Below, piece by piece: positions 1,243-55,520 of a DNA stretch of 64,000 nt. The stretch lies in the NCBI RefSeq assembly GCF_054482525.1, contig NZ_CM137006.1. One strand, written 5' to 3'. The notes beneath the pieces were generated by a model, which worked only from the letters and a program-made list of their open reading frames with translations, was not told the origin of the DNA and did no database searches. Position 1 is the first letter of the stretch, and each line of letters opens with the position of its first letter. The translations under genes were made by a program, and so were the position numbers.

Positions 1243-1680
1243 ATGATCACCGACAAACTGTTGATGTTCTCCGAAGCTCAGGCGGTTACGAATACCGCGG
1301 CTTCTACTGACGTAATCGATCTCGGTCCAATTGACGGAAAACGTCGTGATATCGGCGTGGGTTACCCGCTTGAGTTTTGGGTGCTGGTTAACGCAGCCGC
1401 CGCAGCAAGCGGTGATGCAACTGTAAACATCCAGTTGCAGACGAGTGAGAATAACACCTCATGGACCACTATTTATGATAGTGGCGCACTGGTAAAGACC
1501 GCCCTGACAGCAGGTAAACGAGTTGTTTCTGCAAAGGTGCCTGCCGGTGTTCAGCGATATCTGCGTGTTAACTACTCCGTCGCAACTGGCCCACTAACGG
1601 CTGGCGAATTCACTGCTGGTATCAGTCTTGATGTTGATGCCAATACGCCGTATCCGATCCGCTCAAAAGTAACTGGTTAA
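1243..1680 (+). CDS. Hypothetical virion protein, 145 aa (possible head decoration/accessory)
   Basis: ORF with GGAGAAAG Shine-Dalgarno; co-oriented and tightly packed after the capsid gene. Confidence 0.4.
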   Translation: MITDKLLMFSEAQAVTNTAASTDVIDLGPIDGKRRDIGVGYPLEFWVLVNAAAAASGDATVNIQLQTSENNTSWTTIYDSGALVKTALTAGKRVVSAKVPAGVQRYLRVNYSVATGPLTAGEFTAGISLDVDANTPYPIRSKVTG

Positions 1681-1690
1681 GGTGATATCG

Positions 1691-2026
1691 ATGTCAGGTG
1701 AGAAACCAAGATACCGCGTTCTGCGCCTCTCTCATATCCATAACACTCTGTGGCCGGAGGGGGCAGAAATCGAATACGAAGGTGAGCCTGGTAGCGCACT
1801 GGAACCTGTTAACGATGCAGCCAGACAGGCAAAAGCAAAAGTTGCAGGAAAGGTGTCAATGGCAGCAACCAGCACCAAAATCATCAACGATGTGTCAGAT
1901 GATGGTGAACTGGATAAGCTCCGTGAAGAGTACGAATTGCTCTTTAACGAGAAGCCACACCATAACGCCAAAGCTGAAACGCTCCGCGAGAAGATCGCAG
2001 ATAAGCGTAAAGAACTGGGCGTGTAA
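1691..2026 (+). CDS. Hypothetical phage protein, ~111 aa
   Basis: ORF 1682..2026 in the track; first ATG at 1691. Followed directly by a strong intrinsic terminator. Confidence 0.4.
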   Translation: MSGEKPRYRVLRLSHIHNTLWPEGAEIEYEGEPGSALEPVNDAARQAKAKVAGKVSMAATSTKIINDVSDDGELDKLREEYELLFNEKPHHNAKAETLREKIADKRKELGV

Positions 2027-2042
2027 GCCTCGCGAATCAGAC

Positions 2043-2064
2043 AAGGGGCTTCGGCCCCTTTATT
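2043..2064 (+). terminator. Rho-independent terminator after the capsid gene group (T7 Tphi-like position)
   Basis: aaGGGGCttcgGCCCCtttatt: GC stem, 4-nt loop, T-run. Confidence 0.65.
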
Positions 2065-2076
2065 GCAGGAGTGTAT

Positions 2077-2400
2077 ATGGAACTCGTAAACCTCAAAACC
2101 GGCACTGACAGCTACCAGGATGAGAGCGGAGAAACCAGAACTCGTGATGAATACCCGTGGGGGCTGTGCATCACTCTTAATAACGACACATTGAATAAGC
2201 TGAAGGCGCAACCTAAGGGCGTCGGAACGGAAGTGATGATAACTGCAAAGGCTGTTATTCGAGGCCTGTCTGCCAGAGAAACTGACGATGGCGTTAATCG
2301 CAGCGCCGATCTGCAGATCACTGATATGGCGATCGCTCCTGTTTCCGGGGATGTAGAAAAATCAGCGGCTGAAACTCTGTACGGTAACGGAGGTGAGTGA
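2077..2400 (+). CDS. Hypothetical phage protein, ~107 aa
   Basis: ORF 2071..2400; stop overlaps the next start as TGATG. Confidence 0.4.
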   Translation: MELVNLKTGTDSYQDESGETRTRDEYPWGLCITLNNDTLNKLKAQPKGVGTEVMITAKAVIRGLSARETDDGVNRSADLQITDMAIAPVSGDVEKSAAETLYGNGGE

Positions 2401-3005
2401 TGGCCTCTGTAGTAGAGATCTGTAATCGTGCGCTGTCCAATATTGGCAACAGCCGCAGCATTAACAGCCTGACGGAAGCCAGCAAGGAAGCGGGGGAATG
2501 TTCGCTGCACTTTGAGGCCTGCCGTGATGCTGTGCTTTCTGATTTTGACTGGAACTTTGCTACCAAACGCGTGGCGCTTGCAGATACGAGCAATCCACCG
2601 CCTGACTGGGAATATGCGTACCAGTACCCGTCAGATTGTCTGCGCATTACTGAAATTATGCTTCCTGGTGTACGCAATCCAACAGCAGCAATGCGCGTTC
2701 AGTACGAAGTTGGTGCAGACACCAACGGAACAGGAAAGTTGATCTACACAGACCAGCCTCAGGCATGGCTCAAGTATGTCTCTCGCGTTACAGATGTGAA
2801 CATGTTTGATGCCATTTTTATGGAGGCGTTGGCCTGGCGTCTTGCGGCAGCTATTAACATGGCGCTGACTGGGAATGCAGACCTCGGTACGTTTGCCCTC
2901 AATATGTACAATCGCGTGATTCTTAGTGCTGGCTCGCATAGCCAGAATGAATCACAGGAACCACAGCCACCGGTTGACGAGTTTACCATTGCGAGGTTGT
3001 CCTGA
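2400..3005 (+). CDS. Putative head-tail adaptor / tail tubular protein A-like, 201 aa
   Basis: GGAGGT Shine-Dalgarno; ~200-aa gene immediately before an ~800-aa gene with overlapping stop/start, mirroring T7 gp11/gp12. Assignment is by position and size. Confidence 0.4.
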   Translation: MASVVEICNRALSNIGNSRSINSLTEASKEAGECSLHFEACRDAVLSDFDWNFATKRVALADTSNPPPDWEYAYQYPSDCLRITEIMLPGVRNPTAAMRVQYEVGADTNGTGKLIYTDQPQAWLKYVSRVTDVNMFDAIFMEALAWRLAAAINMALTGNADLGTFALNMYNRVILSAGSHSQNESQEPQPPVDEFTIARLS

Positions 3006-5476
3006 TGGCTATCAGTTGGATCCAGCCCAGCTTTGCCGGTGGTGAGATTGGACCGTCGTTGTACGGACGTATCGACATGGCGAAGTACCAGGTGGCATTG
3101 CGCAAGTGCGATAACTTTATCGTGCGGCAGTATGGCGGCGTTGAGAATCGACCTGGTACGCGTTTTGTCGGTGCCGCCAAATACCCAAATCGGAAATGCC
3201 GCCTGATCCCGTTCCAGTTCTCGACGGTTCAGACCTATGCTCTGGAGTTCGGACACCAGTACATGCGCGTTATCAAAGATGGTGCGTTGGTGCTGAACAG
3301 CAGCAATGTTATTTATGAAATTGCCACGCCATATACTGAAGCCGATCTGTTCCGAATTAAATTTACGCAAAGCGCCGACGTGCTTACGCTGGTTCACCCG
3401 GCATACCCGCCGAAAGAGTTGCGCCGCTATGCGCATGACAACTGGCAACTGGTTGATGTGGTAACGAAGAACGGGCCATTTGAAGATATCAATATTGACG
3501 AGTCAGTGACGGTTTATGCCAGCGCCAGCACTGGGACAATTACGTTAACGGCAAGCGCCTCTATTTTTGGCGCGGAGCAGGTAGGCAAATTGTTCTATCT
3601 GGAACAGCCTGCAGTGGATTCTGTGCCGGTATGGGAAACCAGTAAGAGTACGTCGATTGGCGATATTCGCCGTGCAGACAGTAACTACTATCGCGCCGTT
3701 ACAGCAGGAAAAACAGGCACTTTGCGCCCTTCGCATACAGAAGGCACATCATGGGATGGCTGGGGCGGATCCGGTGATGATGATACTGGCATTGAGTGGG
3801 AGTATCTGCACAGTGGTTTTGGCATTGCCCGTATAACTGCTGTAAATGGCACTACTGCAACTGCTGAGGTGATTTCCTATATCCCTTCGCAGGTCGTTGG
3901 CGAGGATAATGCCAGCTATAAATGGGCTAAATATGCCTGGAACAGTGTTAATGGTTATCCTGGCACTGTTGTTTATTATCAACAACGTCTTTACTTCGCC
4001 GCATCGACTGCGTTCCCTCAGACTATCTGGGCCAGCCGTACTGGGGATTATAAGGATTTTGGCAAAAGCAATCCTACGCAGGATGACGACAGAATTATCT
4101 ACACCTATGCCGGGCGTCAGGTTAATGAGATCCGCCACCTGATTGATGTTGGTTCGCTGGTGGCGCTGACTTCCGGAGGTGAGTATGTCATCACCGGCGA
4201 CCAGAACAAAGTGTTAACCCCATCATCATTTGCATTCAGCTCTCAGGGATCAAATGGCTCAAGCAACGTCCCGCCAATTGCCGTGGCGAATATTGCTTTG
4301 TTCGTCCAGGAGAAAGGCAGTGTTGTACGTGATCTGGCCTACTCATTCGATGTTGACGGCTATCAGGGGAACGACCTGACCATCCTTGCCAATCATCTTT
4401 TTCAGAAGCACAGCATTGTTGACTGGTGCTTCTCGATTGTCCCTTACTCCAGCGCCTTCTGCATTCGTGATGACGGTAAATTGCTGGTGATGACCTATTT
4501 GCGTGATCAGCAGGTTTTTGCATGGGCACCACAATCCAGTACCGGGAAATATGAAAGCACATGCAGTATCAGCGAAGGCAATGAAGATGCGGTGTATTTC
4601 GTCGTTAACCGAACCGTTAACGGGCAAACAGTGAGATACATAGAGCGACTGTCCAGCCGTTTATTTACCAGCGATGAAGATGCTTTCTTTGTTGATTCTG
4701 GCCTTAGCTATGATGGAAGAAATACGTCTGACAGAACGATGACCATCACTGGTGGTTCTGGTGAATGGGATTACCGCGCGGAATATACAATCAGTATTTC
4801 TGGTGGTGCGTACTTCACCAGTAGTGATGTCGGTGCGCAACTACAATTCCCTTATACCGGAACTGATCCTGATACTGGCGATGAAGTGTCAAAAGAATTA
4901 CGTTGCGACATTATTTCTGTAACCAGCAATACCGCTGTAGTGGTTCGTCCTAACAGGAACGTCCCATCATCCCTCAGGAATGTGGCCACCACGAACTGGC
5001 AGATGGCGCGCCGGACATTTGGAGGCCTGTCTCATCTTGAAGGCCAGATCGTAAACATTCTCTCTGATGCGAACGTGGAACCACAGAAAGTTGTTTCCGG
5101 AGGTGCCGTCACGCTGGAATCTCCGGGGGCTGTAGTGCACATCGGCCTGCCAATAACTGCTGAATTCGAAACACTGGATATCAACATTAGCGGACAGGAA
5201 ACGCTGCTGGACAAAAAACAGGTGATCCCGTCCGTTACTCTGGTTGTGAATGCCAGTCGCGGCATCTGGGCGACTACGCCCGGCGGTAAATGGTACGAAT
5301 ATCCACAGCGTGAATTCGAGTTCTACGATGATCCTGTTGATGATGCTACCGGAAAAGTAGAAGTGAAACTGGACAGTAACTGGGGCAAAAACGGGCGTGT
5401 AAAAATCCGTCAGCTTGACCCGTTGCCGCTGTCTGTTCTTGCCGTTATTCCTCGCCTTACTGTTGGGGGAGTCTGA
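3005..5476 (+). CDS. Putative tail tubular protein B / nozzle-like protein, 823 aa
   Basis: TGATG overlap with the upstream gene; size and position match T7 gp12. N-terminus is Gly/Pro-rich. Confidence 0.45.
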   Translation: MAISWIQPSFAGGEIGPSLYGRIDMAKYQVALRKCDNFIVRQYGGVENRPGTRFVGAAKYPNRKCRLIPFQFSTVQTYALEFGHQYMRVIKDGALVLNSSNVIYEIATPYTEADLFRIKFTQSADVLTLVHPAYPPKELRRYAHDNWQLVDVVTKNGPFEDINIDESVTVYASASTGTITLTASASIFGAEQVGKLFYLEQPAVDSVPVWETSKSTSIGDIRRADSNYYRAVTAGKTGTLRPSHTEGTSWDGWGGSGDDDTGIEWEYLHSGFGIARITAVNGTTATAEVISYIPSQVVGEDNASYKWAKYAWNSVNGYPGTVVYYQQRLYFAASTAFPQTIWASRTGDYKDFGKSNPTQDDDRIIYTYAGRQVNEIRHLIDVGSLVALTSGGEYVITGDQNKVLTPSSFAFSSQGSNGSSNVPPIAVANIALFVQEKGSVVRDLAYSFDVDGYQGNDLTILANHLFQKHSIVDWCFSIVPYSSAFCIRDDGKLLVMTYLRDQQVFAWAPQSSTGKYESTCSISEGNEDAVYFVVNRTVNGQTVRYIERLSSRLFTSDEDAFFVDSGLSYDGRNTSDRTMTITGGSGEWDYRAEYTISISGGAYFTSSDVGAQLQFPYTGTDPDTGDEVSKELRCDIISVTSNTAVVVRPNRNVPSSLRNVATTNWQMARRTFGGLSHLEGQIVNILSDANVEPQKVVSGGAVTLESPGAVVHIGLPITAEFETLDINISGQETLLDKKQVIPSVTLVVNASRGIWATTPGGKWYEYPQREFEFYDDPVDDATGKVEVKLDSNWGKNGRVKIRQLDPLPLSVLAVIPRLTVGGV

Positions 5477-5940
5477 TGATCGATGTTCAAATTATTCCCG
5501 CTACCGAAGAGCATCTTCAGATGATTTTGCCGGATGTTCGTCAGGCTGATATTGACGAACTGTATGCGGTATCGCTGATGACTACCGAAGATGCGCTGCG
5601 CGTTGGTCTTCGCACTGCGACTATGGCCTGGTCAGGGTTCGCGAACGGAGAACTGGTAACCATGTTTGGTGTATCTCCGGCGTCAATGATCGGTGGCAAT
5701 GGTACGCCCTGGCTGGTAGGAACCAGCCGTATTGAAAAATATCAGAAGACATTTCTGCGCCACTGCCGCCCTGTATTGCAGCAGATGCTGGCAGTTTATC
5801 CGCGCCTGGAAAACTACGTCGACGAGCGAAACCATGTTGCCAAAGCATGGCTGCACTGGCTTGGATTCAGGCTTGAAGAAGCCGCGCCTTATGGTGCTCT
5901 TGGTCTTAATTTCCACAGATTTCACATGGAGAGAAAATAA
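5476..5940 (+). CDS. Putative internal virion protein, 154 aa
   Basis: Start overlaps the upstream stop; lies in the internal-protein block between nozzle-like gene and tailspike. Confidence 0.35.
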   Translation: MIDVQIIPATEEHLQMILPDVRQADIDELYAVSLMTTEDALRVGLRTATMAWSGFANGELVTMFGVSPASMIGGNGTPWLVGTSRIEKYQKTFLRHCRPVLQQMLAVYPRLENYVDERNHVAKAWLHWLGFRLEEAAPYGALGLNFHRFHMERK

Positions 5941-8998: not shown

Positions 8999-10797
8999 GT
9001 TACTTTGGCCTTAATCCAGTAAACCAGAATCAGCAGCTTGACGAAGCAGCATCAAATCCAGCTGGCTTTAACAGCGATGTTGGTTTTTTCGACAATGCTG
9101 TAGGAGCGGCATTGTCTGGTTTGTACTCCGGGCTGGTGGCAAAGCCAGATCAGTTGCTATGGGCAGGGATGGATAAAATCGTATCCCCGATTGCTCAGTT
9201 TGTTAACGAAAACACCTCGCTCAATGATACTTCAGTTTCATACATTGCCGAGCAGAGAAAACTAGCAGAGCAGCAGGTTAAGCGGCTGACGCCTGATGCC
9301 GCGACAACCGGAACCGCTGGGCAGGTTCTTTATGGGTTGTTCGATATGGGCGGGCAGGCTGTTGTCGGTACAACGCTCGGTGGTCCTGTCGGAGGTGCAG
9401 CGGCGGTAACTTCGCTACAGGGTTTTTCTGAGTTTGAACGGCTGACAGCACAGGGTGTTGATTTCAGGACGGCGCAGGAAGCGGGATTAGTGCAGGGCAT
9501 TACTGCTGGTGCCGGAACGCTGATCCCTATGAGCCTCGGGTTACGTGCTGGTGGTGCGCTGGCGGAAGGTGTGGCGGCTCAGCTTGCGCGGACGGGTGAG
9601 AGTTCAGTGCGACGCGCCGCAGCAACAGCAGTACGTGCAACGCCAGATATTGCCTATGCCGCAGGTACAAATATTGCGTTCGGTATGGCACAGCGTGGGC
9701 TTACTGCAAAAACACTTCGTGATGGTGGCTATAGCGAAATGGCTAACCAGTATGATGTGTTGGATCGACAGGCAATTGCTATTGATGCTGTTCTTGGGGT
9801 GGCGTTTGGTGGTGTCGGCAGATTTATTAACTCTCGCGGCGAGTCTACAAACGCACCAAATTTTTCACCAGTTGATATCGATGCTGCACTGGCGGCGAAT
9901 GCCGCTCATCATGCTGAAATTGATATTGCGCCCGGCGTGCCGATCAACGTGCTTTCGCGCAATTCTCACATTCAGGCTCTGCGAAAAGCTATGTCTGATG
10001 TTAGCCAGGGGAGACCTGTAGACGTTGCCAGCATTGTTGAGTCTGCATCTTTCAGTGAAATTCCTGGGCGCAAGAGTCTGCTGTCTCAGGCAGTTAATGA
10101 GGCTCTGTCATCTGTAGATGATGGAGTAACGGCGCGCGCTATAGAAAATCGGTTGCTTGAAGAACAGGCCGCGCAGCTTTTGCCGCGTGGAGATAGACAG
10201 GTTTACCAGTCTGAAATCGCTAATAGCCAACGAATTATTGAAAATCTCACTGAACAGCGTGCACAAATTCTTGCAGAAGAGCCAACCGGTAGCGGTAAAG
10301 CTTTGTCTCGTGCTCGATCAGATAAACAGGCCAGACTTCGCGATATTGATCAACGAATCCGGCAGGCACAAGAACGCCTGGAATTTTCCCGTAACGCGTT
10401 GGCACCGCACGAGCCTGGCGGTCAGTTTTTTGAAGCTCGAGCAGAACTGGCTCGGAGACAGCAGGCAGAAAGTGAACTTAATGCTCAGGCTGTTTCATTC
10501 TATAAAACAGCAGAGGTCAGGACGCCAGACGAAGTAGCTCCTTTTGAGCCTGATAAAATATTGCAACAGGCAGAACAAAAAATGATGTCAGATCAGGCAG
10601 GAGATATTGATCTGCGCATAGCTGAAGACTCGCTGCTTGAATCACCTGACATGATAATCACCGTGCTGGATGATGATGGTAATCCACAATCGCGCAGTGC
10701 GCGTGAAGTACTGGATGAAGCGAACAGGGAAAGTGAGCAGGCAATACAGGATTCCAGCCTGTTTGATGTTGCTGTGGCGTGTTTCTTGAGAGGTTAA
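8995..10797 (+). CDS. Putative internal virion/ejection protein, 600 aa
   Basis: ATGA overlap with upstream gene; Gly/Ala-rich N-terminal half and charged helical C-terminal half. Confidence 0.4.
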   Translation: MSYFGLNPVNQNQQLDEAASNPAGFNSDVGFFDNAVGAALSGLYSGLVAKPDQLLWAGMDKIVSPIAQFVNENTSLNDTSVSYIAEQRKLAEQQVKRLTPDAATTGTAGQVLYGLFDMGGQAVVGTTLGGPVGGAAAVTSLQGFSEFERLTAQGVDFRTAQEAGLVQGITAGAGTLIPMSLGLRAGGALAEGVAAQLARTGESSVRRAAATAVRATPDIAYAAGTNIAFGMAQRGLTAKTLRDGGYSEMANQYDVLDRQAIAIDAVLGVAFGGVGRFINSRGESTNAPNFSPVDIDAALAANAAHHAEIDIAPGVPINVLSRNSHIQALRKAMSDVSQGRPVDVASIVESASFSEIPGRKSLLSQAVNEALSSVDDGVTARAIENRLLEEQAAQLLPRGDRQVYQSEIANSQRIIENLTEQRAQILAEEPTGSGKALSRARSDKQARLRDIDQRIRQAQERLEFSRNALAPHEPGGQFFEARAELARRQQAESELNAQAVSFYKTAEVRTPDEVAPFEPDKILQQAEQKMMSDQAGDIDLRIAEDSLLESPDMIITVLDDDGNPQSRSAREVLDEANRESEQAIQDSSLFDVAVACFLRG

Positions 10798-14035: not shown

Positions 14036-14058
14036 AAAAATCCCGCAGCGCGGGCTTA
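14036..14058 (-). terminator. Intrinsic terminator downstream of the toxin-like gene
   Basis: Minus strand reads aagCCCGCgctGCGGGattttttg. Confidence 0.5.
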
Positions 14059-14601
14059 TTCCTTCCATTTATCAGAAAAAAGATCTTCTTCTAAAGGCAT
14101 TGGTTCTGTTTTTGTTTTCTCAAAGAATTGATAACTGATAGTGATTGCTGCCTCTTTAAACTCTTCTTGCTCAGTTATGTTGTGGGCATCTGCGTCAACA
14201 AAAAACATAACCAGCGCATCACGATTGTGATTTACCGAATAAACTAAAAAGCAATTACTTGTTGGTATGCATTTTACTTGCACAGACGCTATTTTTTTCC
14301 ATGCATCCCAAGATGATTTTTTACCAGTGTGTTTTTTATCACTATCTTCTGGAATATAGTCTTGGTTATCGACATGAGTATGCCTGACATTTAGTTTAAG
14401 CATTTCTGTCGGACGAGCAAATGCAGCATCTTTACCAAGAGATGGATGGTATCCCGTTTTCCAATACTGGGTAAAGGCATCAGATACTTTCTTCAGCTCA
14501 AGATCAGATGCACAAAGGGCCGAGAAATTTTGCGTATGCAATACTCGACCCTTATATCTGACAATTTGATTTTTATCATTCTGCGACGCAGACGAACTCA
14601 T
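14056..14601 (-). CDS. Hypothetical toxin-like accessory protein, 181 aa (tentative resemblance to YafO-family toxins; unverified)
   Basis: Track ORF 14056..14628; ATG at 14601 with AAGGAA Shine-Dalgarno. AT-rich, opposite strand to virion genes. Motifs YHPSLGKDAAFARP and VRHTHV recalled as YafO-like, from memory only. Confidence 0.5.
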   Translation of the reverse strand: MSSSASQNDKNQIVRYKGRVLHTQNFSALCASDLELKKVSDAFTQYWKTGYHPSLGKDAAFARPTEMLKLNVRHTHVDNQDYIPEDSDKKHTGKKSSWDAWKKIASVQVKCIPTSNCFLVYSVNHNRDALVMFFVDADAHNITEQEEFKEAAITISYQFFEKTKTEPMPLEEDLFSDKWKE

Positions 14602-14755
14602 AATTTTCCTTATTGTTACGAGAATCAAAGAAAGCGCGGGATACGCGACTTGCGTGATCTTTTGTCATAGTAACTTTTACGCACTCTACGCTTCCATTGA
14701 AAGAACGTCTTGCGGCAGCTTGCGCTCTACGCATCTGCAATTTTTCGTTTCGCAT
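14576..14755 (-). CDS. Small basic ORF, 59 aa, overlapping the start of the toxin-like gene (candidate antitoxin/regulator)
   Basis: Hand translation: MRNEKLQMRRAQAAARRSFNGSVECVKVTMTKDHASRVSRAFFDSRNNKENYEFVCVAE. GAGGT Shine-Dalgarno 6 nt upstream; 26-nt overlap with the downstream gene. Not in ORF track (<60 aa). Confidence 0.25.
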   Translation of the reverse strand: MRNEKLQMRRAQAAARRSFNGSVECVKVTMTKDHASRVSRAFFDSRNNKENYEFVCVAE

Positions 14756-14902
14756 GACATTACCTCATATCTCATAAGTTCATTACACGGATTAATAAAA
14801 ATGAAACCAATCCGTTTACCCTTGAGGTAATAGTACGCTATTCACCCACAGTCTGCAATCTGTACAGAATTATTTAAAGGCACATCCCTGTGCCGCCGCC
14901 CG

Positions 14903-15598
14903 TCAGAAGAACCCTGCCTTGTCGTTGATGTACTCCGCGTGCGTCTGGATATCACGCAGGCATTTGCTCACACCGACGATGTAGCAGAACATGGTGGTCA
15001 GCTCCGCCGCCGCGCCCGATACGTCGTGCCCGTCGTCCTGTAACTGGTTCAGCAGATTCATCAGCAGTGAGTTCTCCGTCAGGCCGAGAACACCAGACGG
15101 CGAATGAATCAGGCTGCGGTAGCCGGGCTTCAGTGGGGCACTGTAGGTTTTGTTCTCTATCTTCATCGCCTGCATCACTGCTGATGCTGTGGCGTTGGCT
15201 ACCTGGTCGGCAACCATCTTTATGCGCTCTTCCTGCGGGAGCGAGTTTTTAATGTAACTTCCGGTGCGGCGGATCTGAGGAAGAACCTCACCTGTAACCC
15301 ATTTACGAAAGCGGTATGGGATAGTGCCTGGTGTCACTGCGTCGCGGCAGCGGAGGATCAGTGTGTAGAGGCCTGACTCGGAGATGATGATCGATTCTTG
15401 CTCACCGCCAGGGGTGTCGGTTGAAGCGACGCCCTTCTCATCATCATCAAGTTTTCGAACAGCATCTCGATGGTTTGCTATGCCTATAGCCCGACAAACA
15501 TCTGAAGCGATAAACCATGGCTCACCATTAATGACGATTACTCGTATATCGGCTTGGGATTCGAAAGAAAAAATGGACGTGCTTTTTGTAGCTGTCAT
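14903..15598 (-). CDS. Bro-N (KilA-N-like) domain protein, antirepressor-like, 231 aa
   Basis: N-terminal pattern F.F...IRV....GEPWF.A.DVC...G......A...LDDDEK...T.GG.Q...ISESGLY.LI.R......FR.WVT.EVLP.IRRTG matches Bro-N; AAAAGG Shine-Dalgarno. Confidence 0.7.
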   Translation of the reverse strand: MTATKSTSIFSFESQADIRVIVINGEPWFIASDVCRAIGIANHRDAVRKLDDDEKGVASTDTPGGEQESIIISESGLYTLILRCRDAVTPGTIPYRFRKWVTGEVLPQIRRTGSYIKNSLPQEERIKMVADQVANATASAVMQAMKIENKTYSAPLKPGYRSLIHSPSGVLGLTENSLLMNLLNQLQDDGHDVSGAAAELTTMFCYIVGVSKCLRDIQTHAEYINDKAGFF

Positions 15599-15913
15599 AG
15601 TGGTTACCTTTTAGTCTGGTTAATCACCACTACCGACGCCAATCGGTTGGTGGTGAGCTGTGCAGGGTTGGCGTAACCGGCTAAAAGGACCCGGCGCACC
15701 TTTCGGTGCCCCCACACAGCCCACCATAATACGAATGTGGCCGTGCTATACGCATAAAAAAACCGCTTGCGCGGTGAATGCGCCTTTTAGTAATCCGGGA
15801 CGCCAATCCCGGCACTGGATTTTGCCAGTGCCCGATTACTATGGCACAAGAGGAGTGCGATGTAAATTTACCGCAAAGGTAAATATAAGCACTTCATTTG
15901 GTAATTGCAAACC

Positions 15914-16171
15914 TTATCTGGTTTGTTTTCGTAATTGTTCGGCACAATAGTCGAGATGTGTTTGCAGATCCTGCATAGACATCTGTGAGCTGGTGACGTA
16001 GTTAATCAGTGCAGTCAGTTCGGCAAGTGGGCCATCGACATTAAATCCATCCTTATCTAGATCCCGGAGTAATTTCATCAAGTGCGATCCCTCCACCAGT
16101 GACTTGACGCCTCCCGGCGTGTGAATCCTTTCGGTAAATCCGTCTTCCAGTGGATAGTGATACTGCTGCAT
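15914..16171 (-). CDS. Small protein, 85 aa, paralog of the C-terminal domain of the adjacent Bro-N protein
   Basis: HTPGGVKSLVEGSHLMKLLRDLDKDGFNVDGPLAELTAL...LQTHLDY aligns with HSPSGVLGLTENSLLMNLLNQLQDDGHDVSGAAAELTTM...IQTHAEY of the 231-aa protein. Second ATG (16171) has a GGAG Shine-Dalgarno; track start is 16186. Confidence 0.55.
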   Translation of the reverse strand: MQQYHYPLEDGFTERIHTPGGVKSLVEGSHLMKLLRDLDKDGFNVDGPLAELTALINYVTSSQMSMQDLQTHLDYCAEQLRKQTR

Positions 16172-16193
16172 CTTAATCTTCTCCATGCAATAA

Positions 16194-16209
16194 CTGTATA
16201 TTTATACAG
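16194..16209 (-). promoter_or_regulatory. LexA (SOS) box upstream of the 85-90 aa gene / Bro-N gene pair
   Basis: CTGTATATTTATACAG fits CTGT-N8-ACAG with an AT-rich centre; TTGATA -35-like hexamer abuts it on the coding strand. Confidence 0.65.
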
Positions 16210-16367
16210 TATCAAATAATTTGTTTGCTATCCAGCACGTTTTGCAAATTACCTAAAAGGTAATATCTATTTATATTCACAGTATTTCTATCCATATGTG
16301 GTTTTTCAGGTAATAGAATAACCAGATATGCGGCGCAACGGGTGCTGCGACTATCTGGAGATTTAAC

Positions 16368-29683: not shown

Positions 29684-30321
29684 TTACTCGTCGGCAGCGT
29701 AGCCCTGCGGCGGCAGACGTTGACCATCCAGCCACGCGGCGTTTTCGTGCATTTTCAGACGACCATCGGCAAACCAGCTAATCACCAGTGGATAAATAGC
29801 GTGTTCCTGGGTTTGCACGCGGGCGGTGATGTCATCTTCCGTATCACCAGCAAATACCGGGACTTTCGCCTGTAAAATAACCGGGCCACCGTCCAGTTCA
29901 TCGGTGACGAAATGCACCGATGTACCGTGCTCTTCATCGCCATTTTCCAGCGCCTGACGATGGGTGTGTAATCCGGGATATTTCGGCAGCAGAGAAGGGT
30001 GAATGTTCAGCAAACGCCCGGCATAGTGGGAGACAATCGCCGGGCTGAGAATGCGCATAAAACCAGCCAGCACGACCACATCGGGTGCGTACATGTCGAT
30101 TTCATGAATCAACTCCCGGTCATAGGCTTCACGACTGTCAAACGCGCTGGCGATGAGCGTATGCGTTGCAATACCCGCCTGGCGGGCGCGTTCAAGGCCG
30201 AACGCGTCAGCCTTATTGCTGAAAACTGCCCGTACGGTGCCTTTAATTTTATTGGTTTTGCAGGCGTCAATAATTGCCTGCAAATTACTTCCGTTGCCGG
30301 AAATAAGCACCACAATATTCA

Positions 30322-30322
<1 letters not shown>
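29684..30322 (-). CDS. purN: Phosphoribosylglycinamide formyltransferase
   Basis: 212 aa, N-terminus MNIVVLISGNGSNLQAI. Confidence 0.95.
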
Positions 30323-31377
<1,055 letters not shown>

Positions 31378-54805: not shown

Positions 54806-55520
54806 GTGCACAGAAAACCCCCAGCTAGGCTGGGGGTTCCGGAAAGCTTTCAGCTTTAAGCCAGTTATTAAAACCCCTTTTGATTTGTTAAAACACCTTG
54901 CGGTCTGGCAACTGCAAGTGTCAAACAAGAAATCAAAAGGGGGTCCCAATGGGGAACGAAAAGAGCTTAGCGCACACCCGATGGAACTGTAAATATCACA
55001 TAGTTTTTGCGCCAAAATACCGAAGACAGGTGTTCTACAGAGAGAAGCGTAGAGCAATAGGCAGTATTTTGAGAAAGCTGTGTGAGTGGAAAAGTGTACG
55101 GATTCTGGAAGCTGAATGCTGTGCAGATCATATCCATATGCTTGTGGAGATCCCGCCCAAAATGAGCGTATCCGGCTTTATGGGATATCTGAAAGGGAAA
55201 AGCAGTCTGATGCTTTACGAGCAGTTTGGTGATTTGAAATTCAAATACAGGAACAGGGAGTTCTGGTGCAGAGGGTACTACGTCGATACGGTGGGTAAGA
55301 ACACGGCGAAGATACAGGATTACATAAAGCACCAGCTTGAAGAGGATAAAATGGGAGAGCAGTTATCGATTCCCTATCCGGGCAGCCCGTTTACGGGCCG
55401 TAAGTAACGAAGTTGGATGCAAATGTCAGATCGTGTGCGCCTGTTAGGGCGCGGCTGGTAAGAGAGCCTTATAGGCGCATTTGAAAAACCTCCGGCTATG
55501 CCGGAGGATATTTATTCTGA
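54806..55520 (+). mobile_element. IS200-family insertion sequence (IS200/IS605 family), absent at this locus in K-12
   Basis: ~0.7 kb element with left-end hairpin CCCCCAGCtaggCTGGGGG, single tnpA, right-end hairpin CCTCCGGCtatgCCGGAGG; no terminal inverted repeats. Ends approximate to about 30 bp. Confidence 0.7.
54949..55407 (+). CDS. tnpA: IS200 transposase TnpA (HUH Y1 transposase), 152 aa
   Basis: MGNEKSLAHTRWNCKYHIVFAPKYRRQ...AECCADHIHMLVEIPPK is near-identical to recalled Salmonella IS200 TnpA. Confidence 0.9.
   Translation: MGNEKSLAHTRWNCKYHIVFAPKYRRQVFYREKRRAIGSILRKLCEWKSVRILEAECCADHIHMLVEIPPKMSVSGFMGYLKGKSSLMLYEQFGDLKFKYRNREFWCRGYYVDTVGKNTAKIQDYIKHQLEEDKMGEQLSIPYPGSPFTGRK

Follow-up and report, generated by a model that had tools for sequence, protein, structure and literature searches.

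Genes and features of the locus

The window analysed here (the whole stretch of 64,000 nucleotides) contains a prophage in E. coli DNA, and the locus described below is best read as the secondary immunity region of this Uetakevirus (phiV10/epsilon15-like) prophage. The window begins in virion genes, and the rep gene lies outside it. The minus strand of the locus carries two ORFs, 14903..15598 (231 aa) and 15914..16186 (90 aa as listed), which were annotated as follows, together with a box upstream of the smaller one.

14903..15598, minus strand: Bro-N::Ant-like antirepressor, 231 aa (Pfam PF02498; C-terminus matches 5D50_E and phrog_450)
15278..15550, minus strand: Bro-N domain, residues 17-107 (PF02498, E = 5.5e-21)
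14912..15163, minus strand: Ant-like C-terminal domain, residues ~146-229 (5D50_E, 2e-13; phrog_450; structural model)
15914..16171, minus strand: ant, small antirepressor, 85 aa plus stop (5D50_E, 1.3e-46; conserved Shine-Dalgarno (SD) sequence and start; dN/dS 0.05)
16192..16211, minus strand: LexA (SOS) box, TACTGTATAAATATACAGTT (core CTGT-N8-ACAG at 16194..16209; aligns with the SPC32H box)

Homology between the small protein and the C-terminus of the Bro-N protein

The initial annotation had proposed that the small protein resembles the C-terminal ~80 residues of the larger, Bro-N protein (231 aa), and the alignments bore this out. BLASTP paired residues 146-223 of the larger protein with residues 3-80 of the smaller one without a gap (33/78 identical, 42%; E = 2e-20), and the shared motif that had been quoted (IH.P.GV..L.E.S.LM.LL..L..DG..V.G..AELT ... 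QTH..Y) was visible in the BLASTP alignment of both proteins. The Smith-Waterman score of 159 lay 29 standard deviations above 2000 shuffled controls (26.6 +/- 4.5, maximum 52). Both proteins matched the stand-alone PHROG family phrog_450 (8e-48 and 6e-36) as well as PDB chain 5D50_E ('Anti-repressor protein'), with residues 7-89 of the 90-aa ORF aligning to residues 3-85 of this chain (1.3e-46), and residues 150-226 of the Bro-N protein covering Ant residues 3-79 of 86 (2e-13). An AlphaFold model of residues 141-231 (pLDDT 89.3) showed the Ant fold, as its only PDB matches in a Foldseek search were the 5D50 Ant chains (E-H; TM 0.82, rmsd 1.2-1.9 A). The model of the full 231-aa protein, built on a 10-sequence alignment, had a pLDDT of 51.6 and was discarded, and only the domain model was searched. 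The Ant-domain alignment contained 24 invariant columns, with conserved core residues common to the free and fused forms. Substitution patterns mark both genes as coding, with a dN/dS of 0.05-0.06 in the small gene and of 0.2-0.25 in its larger neighbour, and the fused domain, which is under purifying selection, diverges faster than free Ant (dN/dS 0.24 vs 0.05).

No protein of the locus had a match in NCBIfam or PADLOC, and the Ant fold is not represented in Pfam. The absence of any Pfam or NCBIfam model covering the small protein, and its annotation as 'hypothetical' almost everywhere, could be taken to mean that the similarity reflects chance or low complexity, or that the small ORF is not a gene. 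We give this reading next to no credence, given the z of 29 against shuffles, the small-gene dN/dS of 0.05, the existence of an orthologue with a crystal structure, and the conservation of the SD, ATG and LexA box; the BLASTP, 5D50, shuffle and dN/dS results already refute it.

The two copies, which the initial annotation had described as encoded in tandem, did not arise by a recent tandem duplication. In the tree, the free domains and the fused ones (37-42% identical) formed separate clades, and in some relatives the cassette carrying the fused gene is inserted in the opposite orientation, and on these two grounds a recent duplication in situ was rejected. Judged from the tree, the free and fused clades are old, at about 40% identity.

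The small gene ant and its probable SOS control

The small gene is about 87% identical (86.7%, tblastn) to ant of Salmonella phage SPC32H and occupies the same genome position. Its true start is the second ATG, at 16171, which is conserved and yields the lower end of the 85-90 aa first given for the product. The upstream ATG (16186) is in frame in this window only, through a single extra T; ZX5 and phiV10 are without this T, the SD (GGAG) and ATG line up with their counterparts at SPC32H ant, and the 90-aa form is the product of this window-specific 1-nt insertion. The core of the box ends 23 nt before the ant ATG. CTGT-N8-ACAG has two matches in the 64-kb window, and the one at ant is the only one with flanking TA; a LexA-like box was present at the equivalent place in 8/8 ant loci examined.

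On the strength of its sequence, the small protein is orthologous to Ant of SPC32H, which acts as a tetramer and engages two Rep dimers (PMC9638917). The antirepressor theme of the initial annotation was thereby confirmed, as was its idea of a module able to act alone, since the orthologue of the free form is a complete antirepressor whose complex with Rep has been solved. A place for the small protein as an offshoot of the Bro-N protein, or as its 'regulator', was not supported. The small protein is the core antirepressor and is present wherever the Rep repressor is found (Rep and small Ant co-occurring in the same ~35 phage records, 35 versus 36).

The window contained no Rep homologue, and none turned up in the metagenome and genome loci up to 10 kb from the fused genes; in these genomes Rep lies further away. 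In Escherichia phage vB_EcoP_ZX5 (ZX5), whose Ant and Bro-N proteins are 98.8% and 99.6% identical to those of the window, Rep matches 5D50_A (4e-42). Between the Reps of E. coli and SPC32H the identity is only 42%, and every E. coli uetakevirus of the phage collection has one and essentially the same Rep.

The fused Bro-N::Ant-like protein

The 231-aa protein corresponds to ORF4 of ZX5 (99.6% identity). When ORF4 was overexpressed, the titre of lysogens fell from 1e9 to 1e6 (Li et al. 2022, PMC9782041), and this is the only direct experimental evidence. ORF4 was described there as the only antirepressor of ZX5, with only its Bro-N domain noted and its mechanism left open, while the small ant was left 'hypothetical' and the RNA genes and LexA box went unmentioned (PMC9782041). 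The Ant-homologous C-terminus, which we infer to bind Rep, would explain the ORF4 phenotype. In phiV10, where the annotators named the Bro-N gene 'anti-immunity protein', the fused gene is frameshifted inside the Ant-like domain. Because phiV10 is a viable phage nonetheless, and because the fused gene is absent from the 12 Salmonella uetakevirus records, the Bro-N fusion is an optional, dispensable cassette.

The fused domain might instead be mainly an oligomerisation module, through which the Bro-N protein would form hetero-tetramers with free Ant and modulate it by inhibiting, enhancing or tethering it; this comes close to the competition between the two proteins that the initial annotation had envisaged. 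SPC32H Ant does work as a tetramer (PMC9638917), the fused domain is a complete Ant fold with the shared conserved core residues, and the two genes are adjacent in most loci. However, old separate clades at ~40% identity disfavour mixed oligomers, ZX5 ORF4 on its own pushes the phage towards lysis when overexpressed (PMC9782041), and the cassette, equipped with a promoter and RNA control of its own, occurs in either orientation, so that we consider such a role quite improbable.

An IsrK-C4 RNA cassette upstream of the Bro-N gene

The interval between the two ORFs contains two RNA genes, which, like the LexA box, had been omitted from the initial annotation. The features of this interval, all on the minus strand, were the following.

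15838..15866: promoter-like site of the cassette (TTTACA, 17 nt with TG, CATAGT; start predicted at ~15831)
15756..15831: IsrK-type sRNA, also the a1/b1 target element (RF01394, 77.9 bits; gathering score 50)
15800..15806, 15783..15790 and 15762..15775: within IsrK, b1, a1 and an intrinsic terminator followed by a U run
15646..15731: C4-type antisense RNA (RF01695, 79.2 bits; gathering score 45; full length, 1-87)
15681..15688 and 15668..15674: unpaired segments a' (CCUUUUAG) and b' (ACGCCAA) of C4
15607..15642: target of C4 in the Bro-N mRNA (complementing b' and a' exactly)
15636..15642 and 15607..15614: within this target, b2 (UUGGCGU) and a2 (CUAAAAGG), the latter covering the Bro-N Shine-Dalgarno AAGG
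15620..15727: leader ORF of 35 codons overlapping C4 (read from the sequence; status uncertain)

The Rfam IsrK match begins right at the predicted start (~15831), and the promoter hexamers are kept in a Klebsiella homologue while their flanks vary. The RF03163 (c4-a1b1) match reached 45.1 bits and so fell slightly short of the gathering score (46.7). In the minimum-energy fold of C4, a' lies in a hairpin loop and b' is single-stranded; a'/a2 and b'/b2 are exact complements of 8 nt and 7 nt in antiparallel order, and in Klebsiella one compensatory pair was seen (a1 CTAAACGG, a' CCGTTTAG). Whole-molecule duplex energies of C4 with its targets lay only ~2 standard deviations below those of shuffles, a measure that ignores intramolecular structure; the exact complements in the loops and the Rfam models were relied on instead. 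The leader ORF stops 21 nt before the Bro-N ATG, without overlap. Its peptide is not conserved in Klebsiella and had no NCBIfam match, the ZX5 annotation at its place reads 'ash family protein', and it is possibly the counterpart of Gifsy-1 orf45 or P1 icd.

In 6/6 C4-cassette fusion loci scanned, the fused gene is immediately preceded by IsrK and C4, whatever the N-terminal domain or orientation. The Bro-N gene belongs to a cassette of its own, under putative antisense-RNA control. The presence of the two RNA genes in front of one Ant-fold copy and of the LexA box in front of the other implies that the two copies are controlled differently. Nearly all these genomes lack an annotation for small ant and for the two RNA genes.

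A palindrome repeated at three sites

The palindrome TTACC-N5-GGTAA had three exact sites in the window, against 0 expected.

16249..16263, no strand assigned: palindrome between ant and the divergent tailspike gene (probable Rep/Cro-type operator)
15868..15882, no strand assigned: second copy, an exact site abutting the -35 element of the cassette promoter
14816..14830, no strand assigned: third copy, downstream of the Bro-N gene and upstream of a 59-aa ORF / YafO-like toxin pair

The ZX5 equivalent of the third copy is at 978. The arms are conserved and the spacer is variable in SPC32H, Tyrion, Klebsiella and others, and in ZX5 and SPC32H the palindrome is clustered between rep and cro, suggesting that it is probably a Rep/Cro-type operator. 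The second copy precedes the 5' end of IsrK by 37-51 nt, both in the window and in four other loci (L009, L012, L015 and L005), and this position at the cassette promoter suggests that the prophage repressor may also shut the cassette off. The palindrome also precedes late genes and is common to phages whose Reps are only 42% identical, which speaks against a firm assignment of its binding protein.

The Ant-like domain in other phages

A word-indexed protein search returned close free Ant homologues only, and the fused forms appeared only in an exhaustive profile search. The Ant-like C-terminal domain was found behind five N-terminal domains (Bro-N, AntA, Rha, ORF6N and P22_AR_N), and a constant C-terminal domain behind such varied N-termini fits the carriage of target specificity by the C-terminus. 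In five of the six metagenome and genome loci with a fused gene (L009-L015), this gene adjoins small ant in a uetakevirus-like prophage; L014 from Sodalis has a distant fused relative in another phage type, without a small ant nearby.

The stacking of two fusions in TL-2011b, together with the faster divergence of the fused domain described above, would also suit a Bro-N::Ant protein that serves as an anti-immunity weapon against the Rep variants of other resident prophages at superinfection, in the manner of P1/P7 Ant or P22 Ant, rather than as a second inducer of its own prophage. The name given to the gene in phiV10 favours this reading too, and C4-type immI modules determine the heteroimmunity of P1 and P7. 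Against it, the one essentially identical Rep of the E. coli uetakeviruses in the phage collection offers little target diversity, and the ZX5 experiment showed an effect on the phage's own lysogeny (PMC9782041), so that we regard it as unlikely. The anti-immunity reading is compatible with the one that we prefer and does not exclude it.

Discussion

The homology between the two proteins is real, and the parts of the locus are mostly known. The reading that we prefer, and to which we assign a probability of roughly 0.6, is that the prophage encodes two antirepressors with one Rep-binding fold under different controls, one responding to SOS and the other to an RNA switch. In the lysogen, LexA would occupy the box in the ant promoter; DNA damage would remove LexA and allow Ant to be made, and the Ant tetramer would then, as described for SPC32H, bind two Rep dimers and break up the DNA-bound Rep tetramer, leading to lytic growth. 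Kim and Ryu in 2013 and Kim et al. in 2016 are said to have worked out this SPC32H mechanism, in which the Ant tetramer reportedly binds two Rep dimers.

The second copy would be delivered by a self-contained cassette comprising a promoter, the IsrK sRNA with its a1/b1 elements and leaky terminator, the C4 antisense RNA and the Bro-N gene. Segments a' and b' of C4 would pair with a2 and b2 on the same mRNA and cover the ribosome-binding site, leaving the Bro-N protein untranslated, as in P1/P7 immI; the IsrK/a1b1 RNA, which has the same target sequences, could turn translation on as a decoy or by remodelling the leader, as Gifsy-1 IsrK does. One Rep-binding warhead would in this way be placed under two sensors, SOS and an RNA switch. 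P1 C4 represses, whereas Gifsy-1 IsrK activates, and either effect might dominate here. Weighing against the preferred reading are the modest identity of the fused domain to free Ant (37-42%), the position of rep outside the window, the dispensability of the fusion, the L014 relative without a nearby small ant, and the occurrence of the palindrome before late genes and in phages with divergent Reps.

The closest known system for the small gene is SPC32H Ant/Rep (PDB 5D50, 5D4Z), which shares the ~87% identity, the LexA box and the position of ant between virion genes and tailspike, with a homologous Rep in near-identical phages. In SPC32H, however, ant stands alone with a terminator directly after it, whereas here it is accompanied by a cassette with a second, fused Ant fold under RNA control, and the SPC32H Rep is only 42% identical to that of E. 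coli. The cassette in turn resembles P1/P7 immI (c4, icd, ant1/2) in its C4 RNA with a' and b', upstream a1/b1, downstream a2/b2 over a ribosome-binding site, antirepressor cargo and probably repressor-controlled promoter. It differs in that its cargo is a Bro-N::Ant-fold protein and not P1 Ant, in that a2 overlies the antirepressor gene's own SD and not, as in P1/P7, that of icd, and in having only a poorly conserved 35-codon leader ORF in the place of icd.

In Gifsy-1 isrK-orf45-anrP, IsrK turns translation on in trans, and it promotes induction of the prophage by a route other than SOS (Hershko-Shalev et al. 2016, PMC4825925). The order of elements there is the same (an IsrK sRNA with leaky terminator, the C4-like RNA STnc1160, a short ORF and an antirepressor gene), but the Gifsy-1 locus adjoins antQ, whereas the one described here adjoins a LexA-controlled ant gene. 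Gifsy-1 AnrP and VT2-Sakai H0107, the cargo of similar IsrK-C4 modules, had no detectable similarity to the Bro-N protein, which indicates that RNA module and cargo are independent units.

A temperate phage that wires one effector fold to both an SOS sensor and an antisense-RNA switch bears on SOS-independent prophage induction in E. coli, including relatives infecting O157. To our knowledge, large antirepressors of the Bro-N, Rha, AntA and P22 types have been annotated by the thousands, and the part that recognises the repressor, or the way it does so, is almost never known; C-terminal homology to an antirepressor with a solved repressor complex provides a concrete, testable mechanism for one subgroup. 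More tentatively, and in our judgement rather doubtfully, the Ant fold could be a portable repressor-recognition 'warhead' that uetakevirus-like phages carry on at least five unrelated N-terminal scaffolds, in up to three copies per genome and under different sensors (LexA/SOS, IsrK-C4, Arc-sar). If this were true, prophage induction would be a multi-input decision converging on one repressor, and the C-terminal domain would choose the target in large Bro-N, Rha, AntA and P22-type antirepressors generally. The palindrome at the cassette promoter would then add a relay by which the two circuits may interact, free Ant firing first and the fused copy locking the decision.

The locus can also be set beside P22 immI (mnt, arc, sar RNA, ant), in which the antirepressor likewise adjoins the tailspike gene and has dedicated control circuits, and beside the small Gifsy antirepressors, which are likewise LexA-controlled and act on non-cleavable repressors (Lemire et al. 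2011, PMC3121763). The proteins of both systems are not those described here. In TL-2011b, however, a P22_AR_N protein with Arc and sar upstream ends in the same Ant-like domain.

Shared domain of the two proteins

The region's DNA is 95-98% identical to the E. coli phages TL-2011b, phiV10 and vB_EcoP_ZX5 (ZX5) of the genus Uetakevirus, and the flagged interval holds two ORFs.

ORFs of the flagged interval
14903..15598, minus strand, large ORF, 231 aa (Bro-N::Ant)
15914..16186, minus strand, small ORF, 90 aa as listed (ant)

The initial annotation had proposed that the end of the large protein and the small protein are a fused and a free copy of one domain. This was borne out by BLASTP, in which residues 146-223 of the large protein aligned without gaps to residues 3-80 of the small one (42% identity, E 2e-20). 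The Smith-Waterman score of 159 lay far above that of shuffled controls (26.6 +/- 4.5 in 2000 shuffles, z = 29), so the observation stands. Judged from the sequences, evolution in both genes is of the coding type, with dN/dS of 0.05-0.06 for the small gene (against the SPC32H and Tyrion orthologues) and 0.2-0.25 for the large gene.

Bro-N (residues 17-107) was the sole Pfam domain of the large protein. Its C-terminal 80 residues matched 5D50_E at 2e-13, spanning Ant residues 3-79 of 86, and they also matched phrog_450, the stand-alone PHROG family that the small protein hit. The whole-protein model was poor (pLDDT 51.6); a model of residues 141-231, built from a 29-sequence alignment, reached a pLDDT of 89.3. 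This structure prediction, a check that had been proposed for both proteins, gave the three 5D50 Ant chains as the only meaningful PDB matches (TM 0.82, rmsd 1.2-1.9 Å, probability 1.00).

The small gene encodes an SPC32H-type Ant

The one PDB sequence matched by the small protein was 5D50 chain E, 'Anti-repressor protein' (E 1.3e-46), and tblastn gave 86.7% identity to the annotated ant of Salmonella phages SPC32H and SPC32N. Its gene occupies the position of ant in SPC32H, with the last virion genes on one side and the divergent tailspike gene on the other. An alignment of ant upstream regions showed a conserved Shine-Dalgarno sequence (GGAG) and ATG; this conserved start, at 16171, yields 85 aa. 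The 90-aa reading starts at an ATG farther upstream, which is in frame in the window alone, owing to one extra T (within 16172..16186) that is absent from ZX5 and phiV10. Several database clusters of 110-127 aa (e.g. P0003, P0031-P0035) resemble similarly over-extended gene calls.

Regulatory site of ant
16192..16211, LexA box TACTGTATAAATATACAGTT upstream of ant, aligned with the SPC32H box

CTGT-N8-ACAG has just two matches in the 64-kb window, of which this box alone has the flanking TA, and a LexA-like box stands 21-25 nt upstream of the ATG in 8/8 ant loci examined. That the free Ant is an SOS-triggered inducer is well supported by orthology. Kim and Ryu in 2013 and Kim et al. in 2016 are said to have found that SPC32H Ant is produced once LexA is removed, and acts as a tetramer on two dimers of the prophage repressor, Rep. 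In PMC9638917, the Ant tetramer binding two Rep dimers is described as breaking the DNA-binding Rep tetramer.

Two RNA genes precede the Bro-N gene

Between the two genes is a 315-nt spacer with two RNA genes, both on the strand of their protein-coding neighbours.

RNA features of the spacer
15756..15831, minus strand, IsrK-type sRNA (77.9 bits, gathering score 50)
15646..15731, minus strand, C4 antisense RNA (79.2 bits, gathering score 45)
15800..15806, minus strand, b1, first complement set, inside IsrK
15783..15790, minus strand, a1, first complement set, inside IsrK
15636..15642, minus strand, b2, second complement set, just 5' of the Bro-N ATG
15607..15614, minus strand, a2, second complement set, just 5' of the Bro-N ATG
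15620..15727, minus strand, 35-codon ORF overlapping C4, annotated in ZX5 (peptide not conserved)

Transcription from a promoter-like site (TTTACA, 17 nt with TG, CATAGT) would begin exactly where the IsrK match does, and an intrinsic terminator lies at the IsrK end. The IsrK stretch was also matched as an 'a1/b1 target' element (45.1 bits, just under 46.7); IsrK evidently consists of the a1/b1 element and its terminator. In the predicted fold, the unpaired C4 segments a' (CCUUUUAG) and b' (ACGCCAA) each have exact complements at two places, in antiparallel order, and a2 covers the AAGG Shine-Dalgarno sequence of the Bro-N gene. In a Klebsiella homologue a compensatory change was found, with a1 CTAAACGG pairing with a' CCGTTTAG. 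Masking of the Bro-N ribosome-binding site by C4, which would keep Bro-N::Ant off, is supported by sequence and covariation.

The same architecture is found in the immI region of P1/P7, where C4 blocks translation upstream of ant (PMC8201110), and in the Gifsy-1 isrK-orf45-anrP locus. In the latter, transcription past the IsrK terminator produces a silent mRNA that short IsrK activates in trans, promoting prophage induction (PMC4825925). The IsrK-C4 module occurred in 280 phage records, ahead of unrelated cargo genes. The Rfam families isrK (RF01394) and c4-a1b1 (RF03163), which are not in one clan, overlap on one element at 15756..15844 (minus strand).

A palindrome as probable operator

The palindrome TTACC-N5-GGTAA has three sites in the window, against 0 expected.

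Palindrome copies in the window
15868..15882, abuts the -35 element of the cassette promoter
16249..16263, between ant and the tailspike gene
14816..14830, ahead of a toxin-like gene pair

Allowing at most one mismatch, we counted 14 sites in the ZX5 genome, all 14 of them intergenic, and 18 in that of SPC32H; two or three cluster in the rep-cro intergenic region of each phage. The palindrome also precedes terminase, integrase and replication genes, a pattern pointing to a repressor of the P1 kind whose operators are numerous and scattered. The copy at the cassette promoter keeps its distance of 37-51 nt upstream of IsrK in five loci. We infer that the palindrome is the Rep/Cro operator. P1 immI is shut off by C1; by analogy, the cassette is probably shut off transcriptionally in the lysogen, and Rep at the cassette promoter would probably add a further hold on Bro-N::Ant.

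Directly downstream of the Bro-N gene, at 14056..14755 (minus strand), two overlapping ORFs of 59 and 190 aa were seen, the longer of which (phrog_1651) RefSeq names 'type II toxin-antitoxin system YafO family toxin'; neither had a match in NCBIfam or PADLOC. This pair also borders the ORF6N::Ant cassette of L012, one of the additional loci described below.

Distribution and descent of fused and free copies

When 1.84 billion representative proteins were searched exhaustively with a profile, the Ant-like domain turned up in only 59 clusters, most of them free proteins of 80-95 aa. When fused, the domain is always C-terminal, behind the Pfam domains Bro-N, Rha, AntA or ORF6N, or behind a fifth partner, P22_AR_N, in a TL-2011b protein encoded behind an Arc-like gene and sar RNA. 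Over its final 101 residues this protein shares 83% identity with the window protein. The fusion is the third Ant-domain gene of TL-2011b (L001), a phage in which ant and the IsrK promoter are also separated by an insertion of ~0.9 kb that lacks any long ORF; the two features lie at 1543..2727 and 4832..5745.

In a rough neighbour-joining tree the fused domains formed one clade and the free Ants another, so the pair is old; a recent local duplication as its origin was rejected on the same grounds. Genes for AntA::Ant (L009), Rha::Ant (L010, L015) and ORF6N::Ant (L012) adjoin small ant and tailspike genes in uetakevirus-like prophages, with the fused gene reversed in L010 and L012; the most distant fusion, from Sodalis (L014), is the only one located in another phage type. 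IsrK and C4 lay immediately 5' of the fused gene in all six C4-cassette fusion loci scanned (drawn from TL-2011b, phiV10, L009, L010, L012, L015 and L014). What moves, then, is a unit made up of promoter, IsrK, C4 and an X::Ant gene; at the protein level its Ant-like domain stays the same and its N-terminal domain can be swapped. The 319-aa Rha::Ant gene call of L015 (10001..10960) starts inside the IsrK and C4 matches (10003..10189), and its first ~78 residues are probably translated RNA region, an annotation artefact.

The cassette is optional in these phages: 12 Salmonella records had a single Ant-like match apiece, and in SPC32H a terminator lies directly 3' of ant. In phiV10 the fused gene (L002, 3012..3691) is frameshifted inside the Ant-like domain, with loss of residues ~182-186, and since phiV10 is viable and temperate, the fused antirepressor is dispensable for this phage. 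Annotation splits the frameshifted gene into two ORFs, p23 and p22.

Probable roles of the two antirepressors

The only direct experiment bearing on the large protein concerns ZX5 ORF4, 99.6% identical to it: when ORF4 was overexpressed in the course of infection, lysogens fell from a titre of 1e9 to 1e6 and repressor transcription dropped by 75%; that study mentions just the Bro-N domain and leaves the mechanism open (PMC9782041). We put at about 0.6 the probability that the fused domain binds Rep, because the homology extends across the full fold, the domain is constant over five N-terminal scaffolds and near-restricted to phages with this Rep, and because of the ZX5 phenotype. An anti-immunity role of Bro-N::Ant against Reps of other prophages is unlikely, and hetero-oligomers of the fused domain with free Ant somewhat more so; both are partly compatible with binding of Rep by the fused domain.

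With Rep as the shared target, the phage would have two antirepressors with one Rep-binding fold, of which free Ant would fire on SOS, and Bro-N::Ant, the second, would be released via the IsrK/a1b1 RNA, as in Gifsy-1. The initial annotation had cast the free copy as a module acting alone or competing with the full-length protein, for example as an antirepressor effector with a regulator; the antirepressor idea held in part but the wrong way round, since it is the free copy that forms the core antirepressor and has already been characterised. All parts belong to known kinds (SPC32H Ant, Bro-N antirepressors, C4/IsrK control). In the literature that could be read, we found no description of the domain relationship of Ant and the Bro-N protein, nor of the arrangement, seen repeatedly, of 'same warhead, different sensor'.

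Repressor gene and prophage borders

The Rep gene is absent from the 64-kb window, which opens within virion genes. ZX5, whose Ant is 98.8% identical to that of the window, carries a Rep that shares 42% identity with its SPC32H counterpart and matches 5D50_A at 4e-42. Throughout the phage collection, Rep and the small Ant were found in the same genomes, with 36 and 35 records respectively. The prophage portion ends at ~21.5 kb, and the flanking host genes (~21500..30500) appear to be yfgI, yfgH, pdeF (yfgF), ppx and ppk, names based on the order and sizes of the ORFs and on what Pfam hit at the corresponding locus L009. Such a right end of the prophage would fit attachment at the guaA 3'-end, the site reported for ZX5, phiV10 and epsilon15. 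In the host part, and unrelated to the finding, the Hfq-binding sRNA STnc490 gave a full-length match of 146 bits at 54816..54939 (plus strand).
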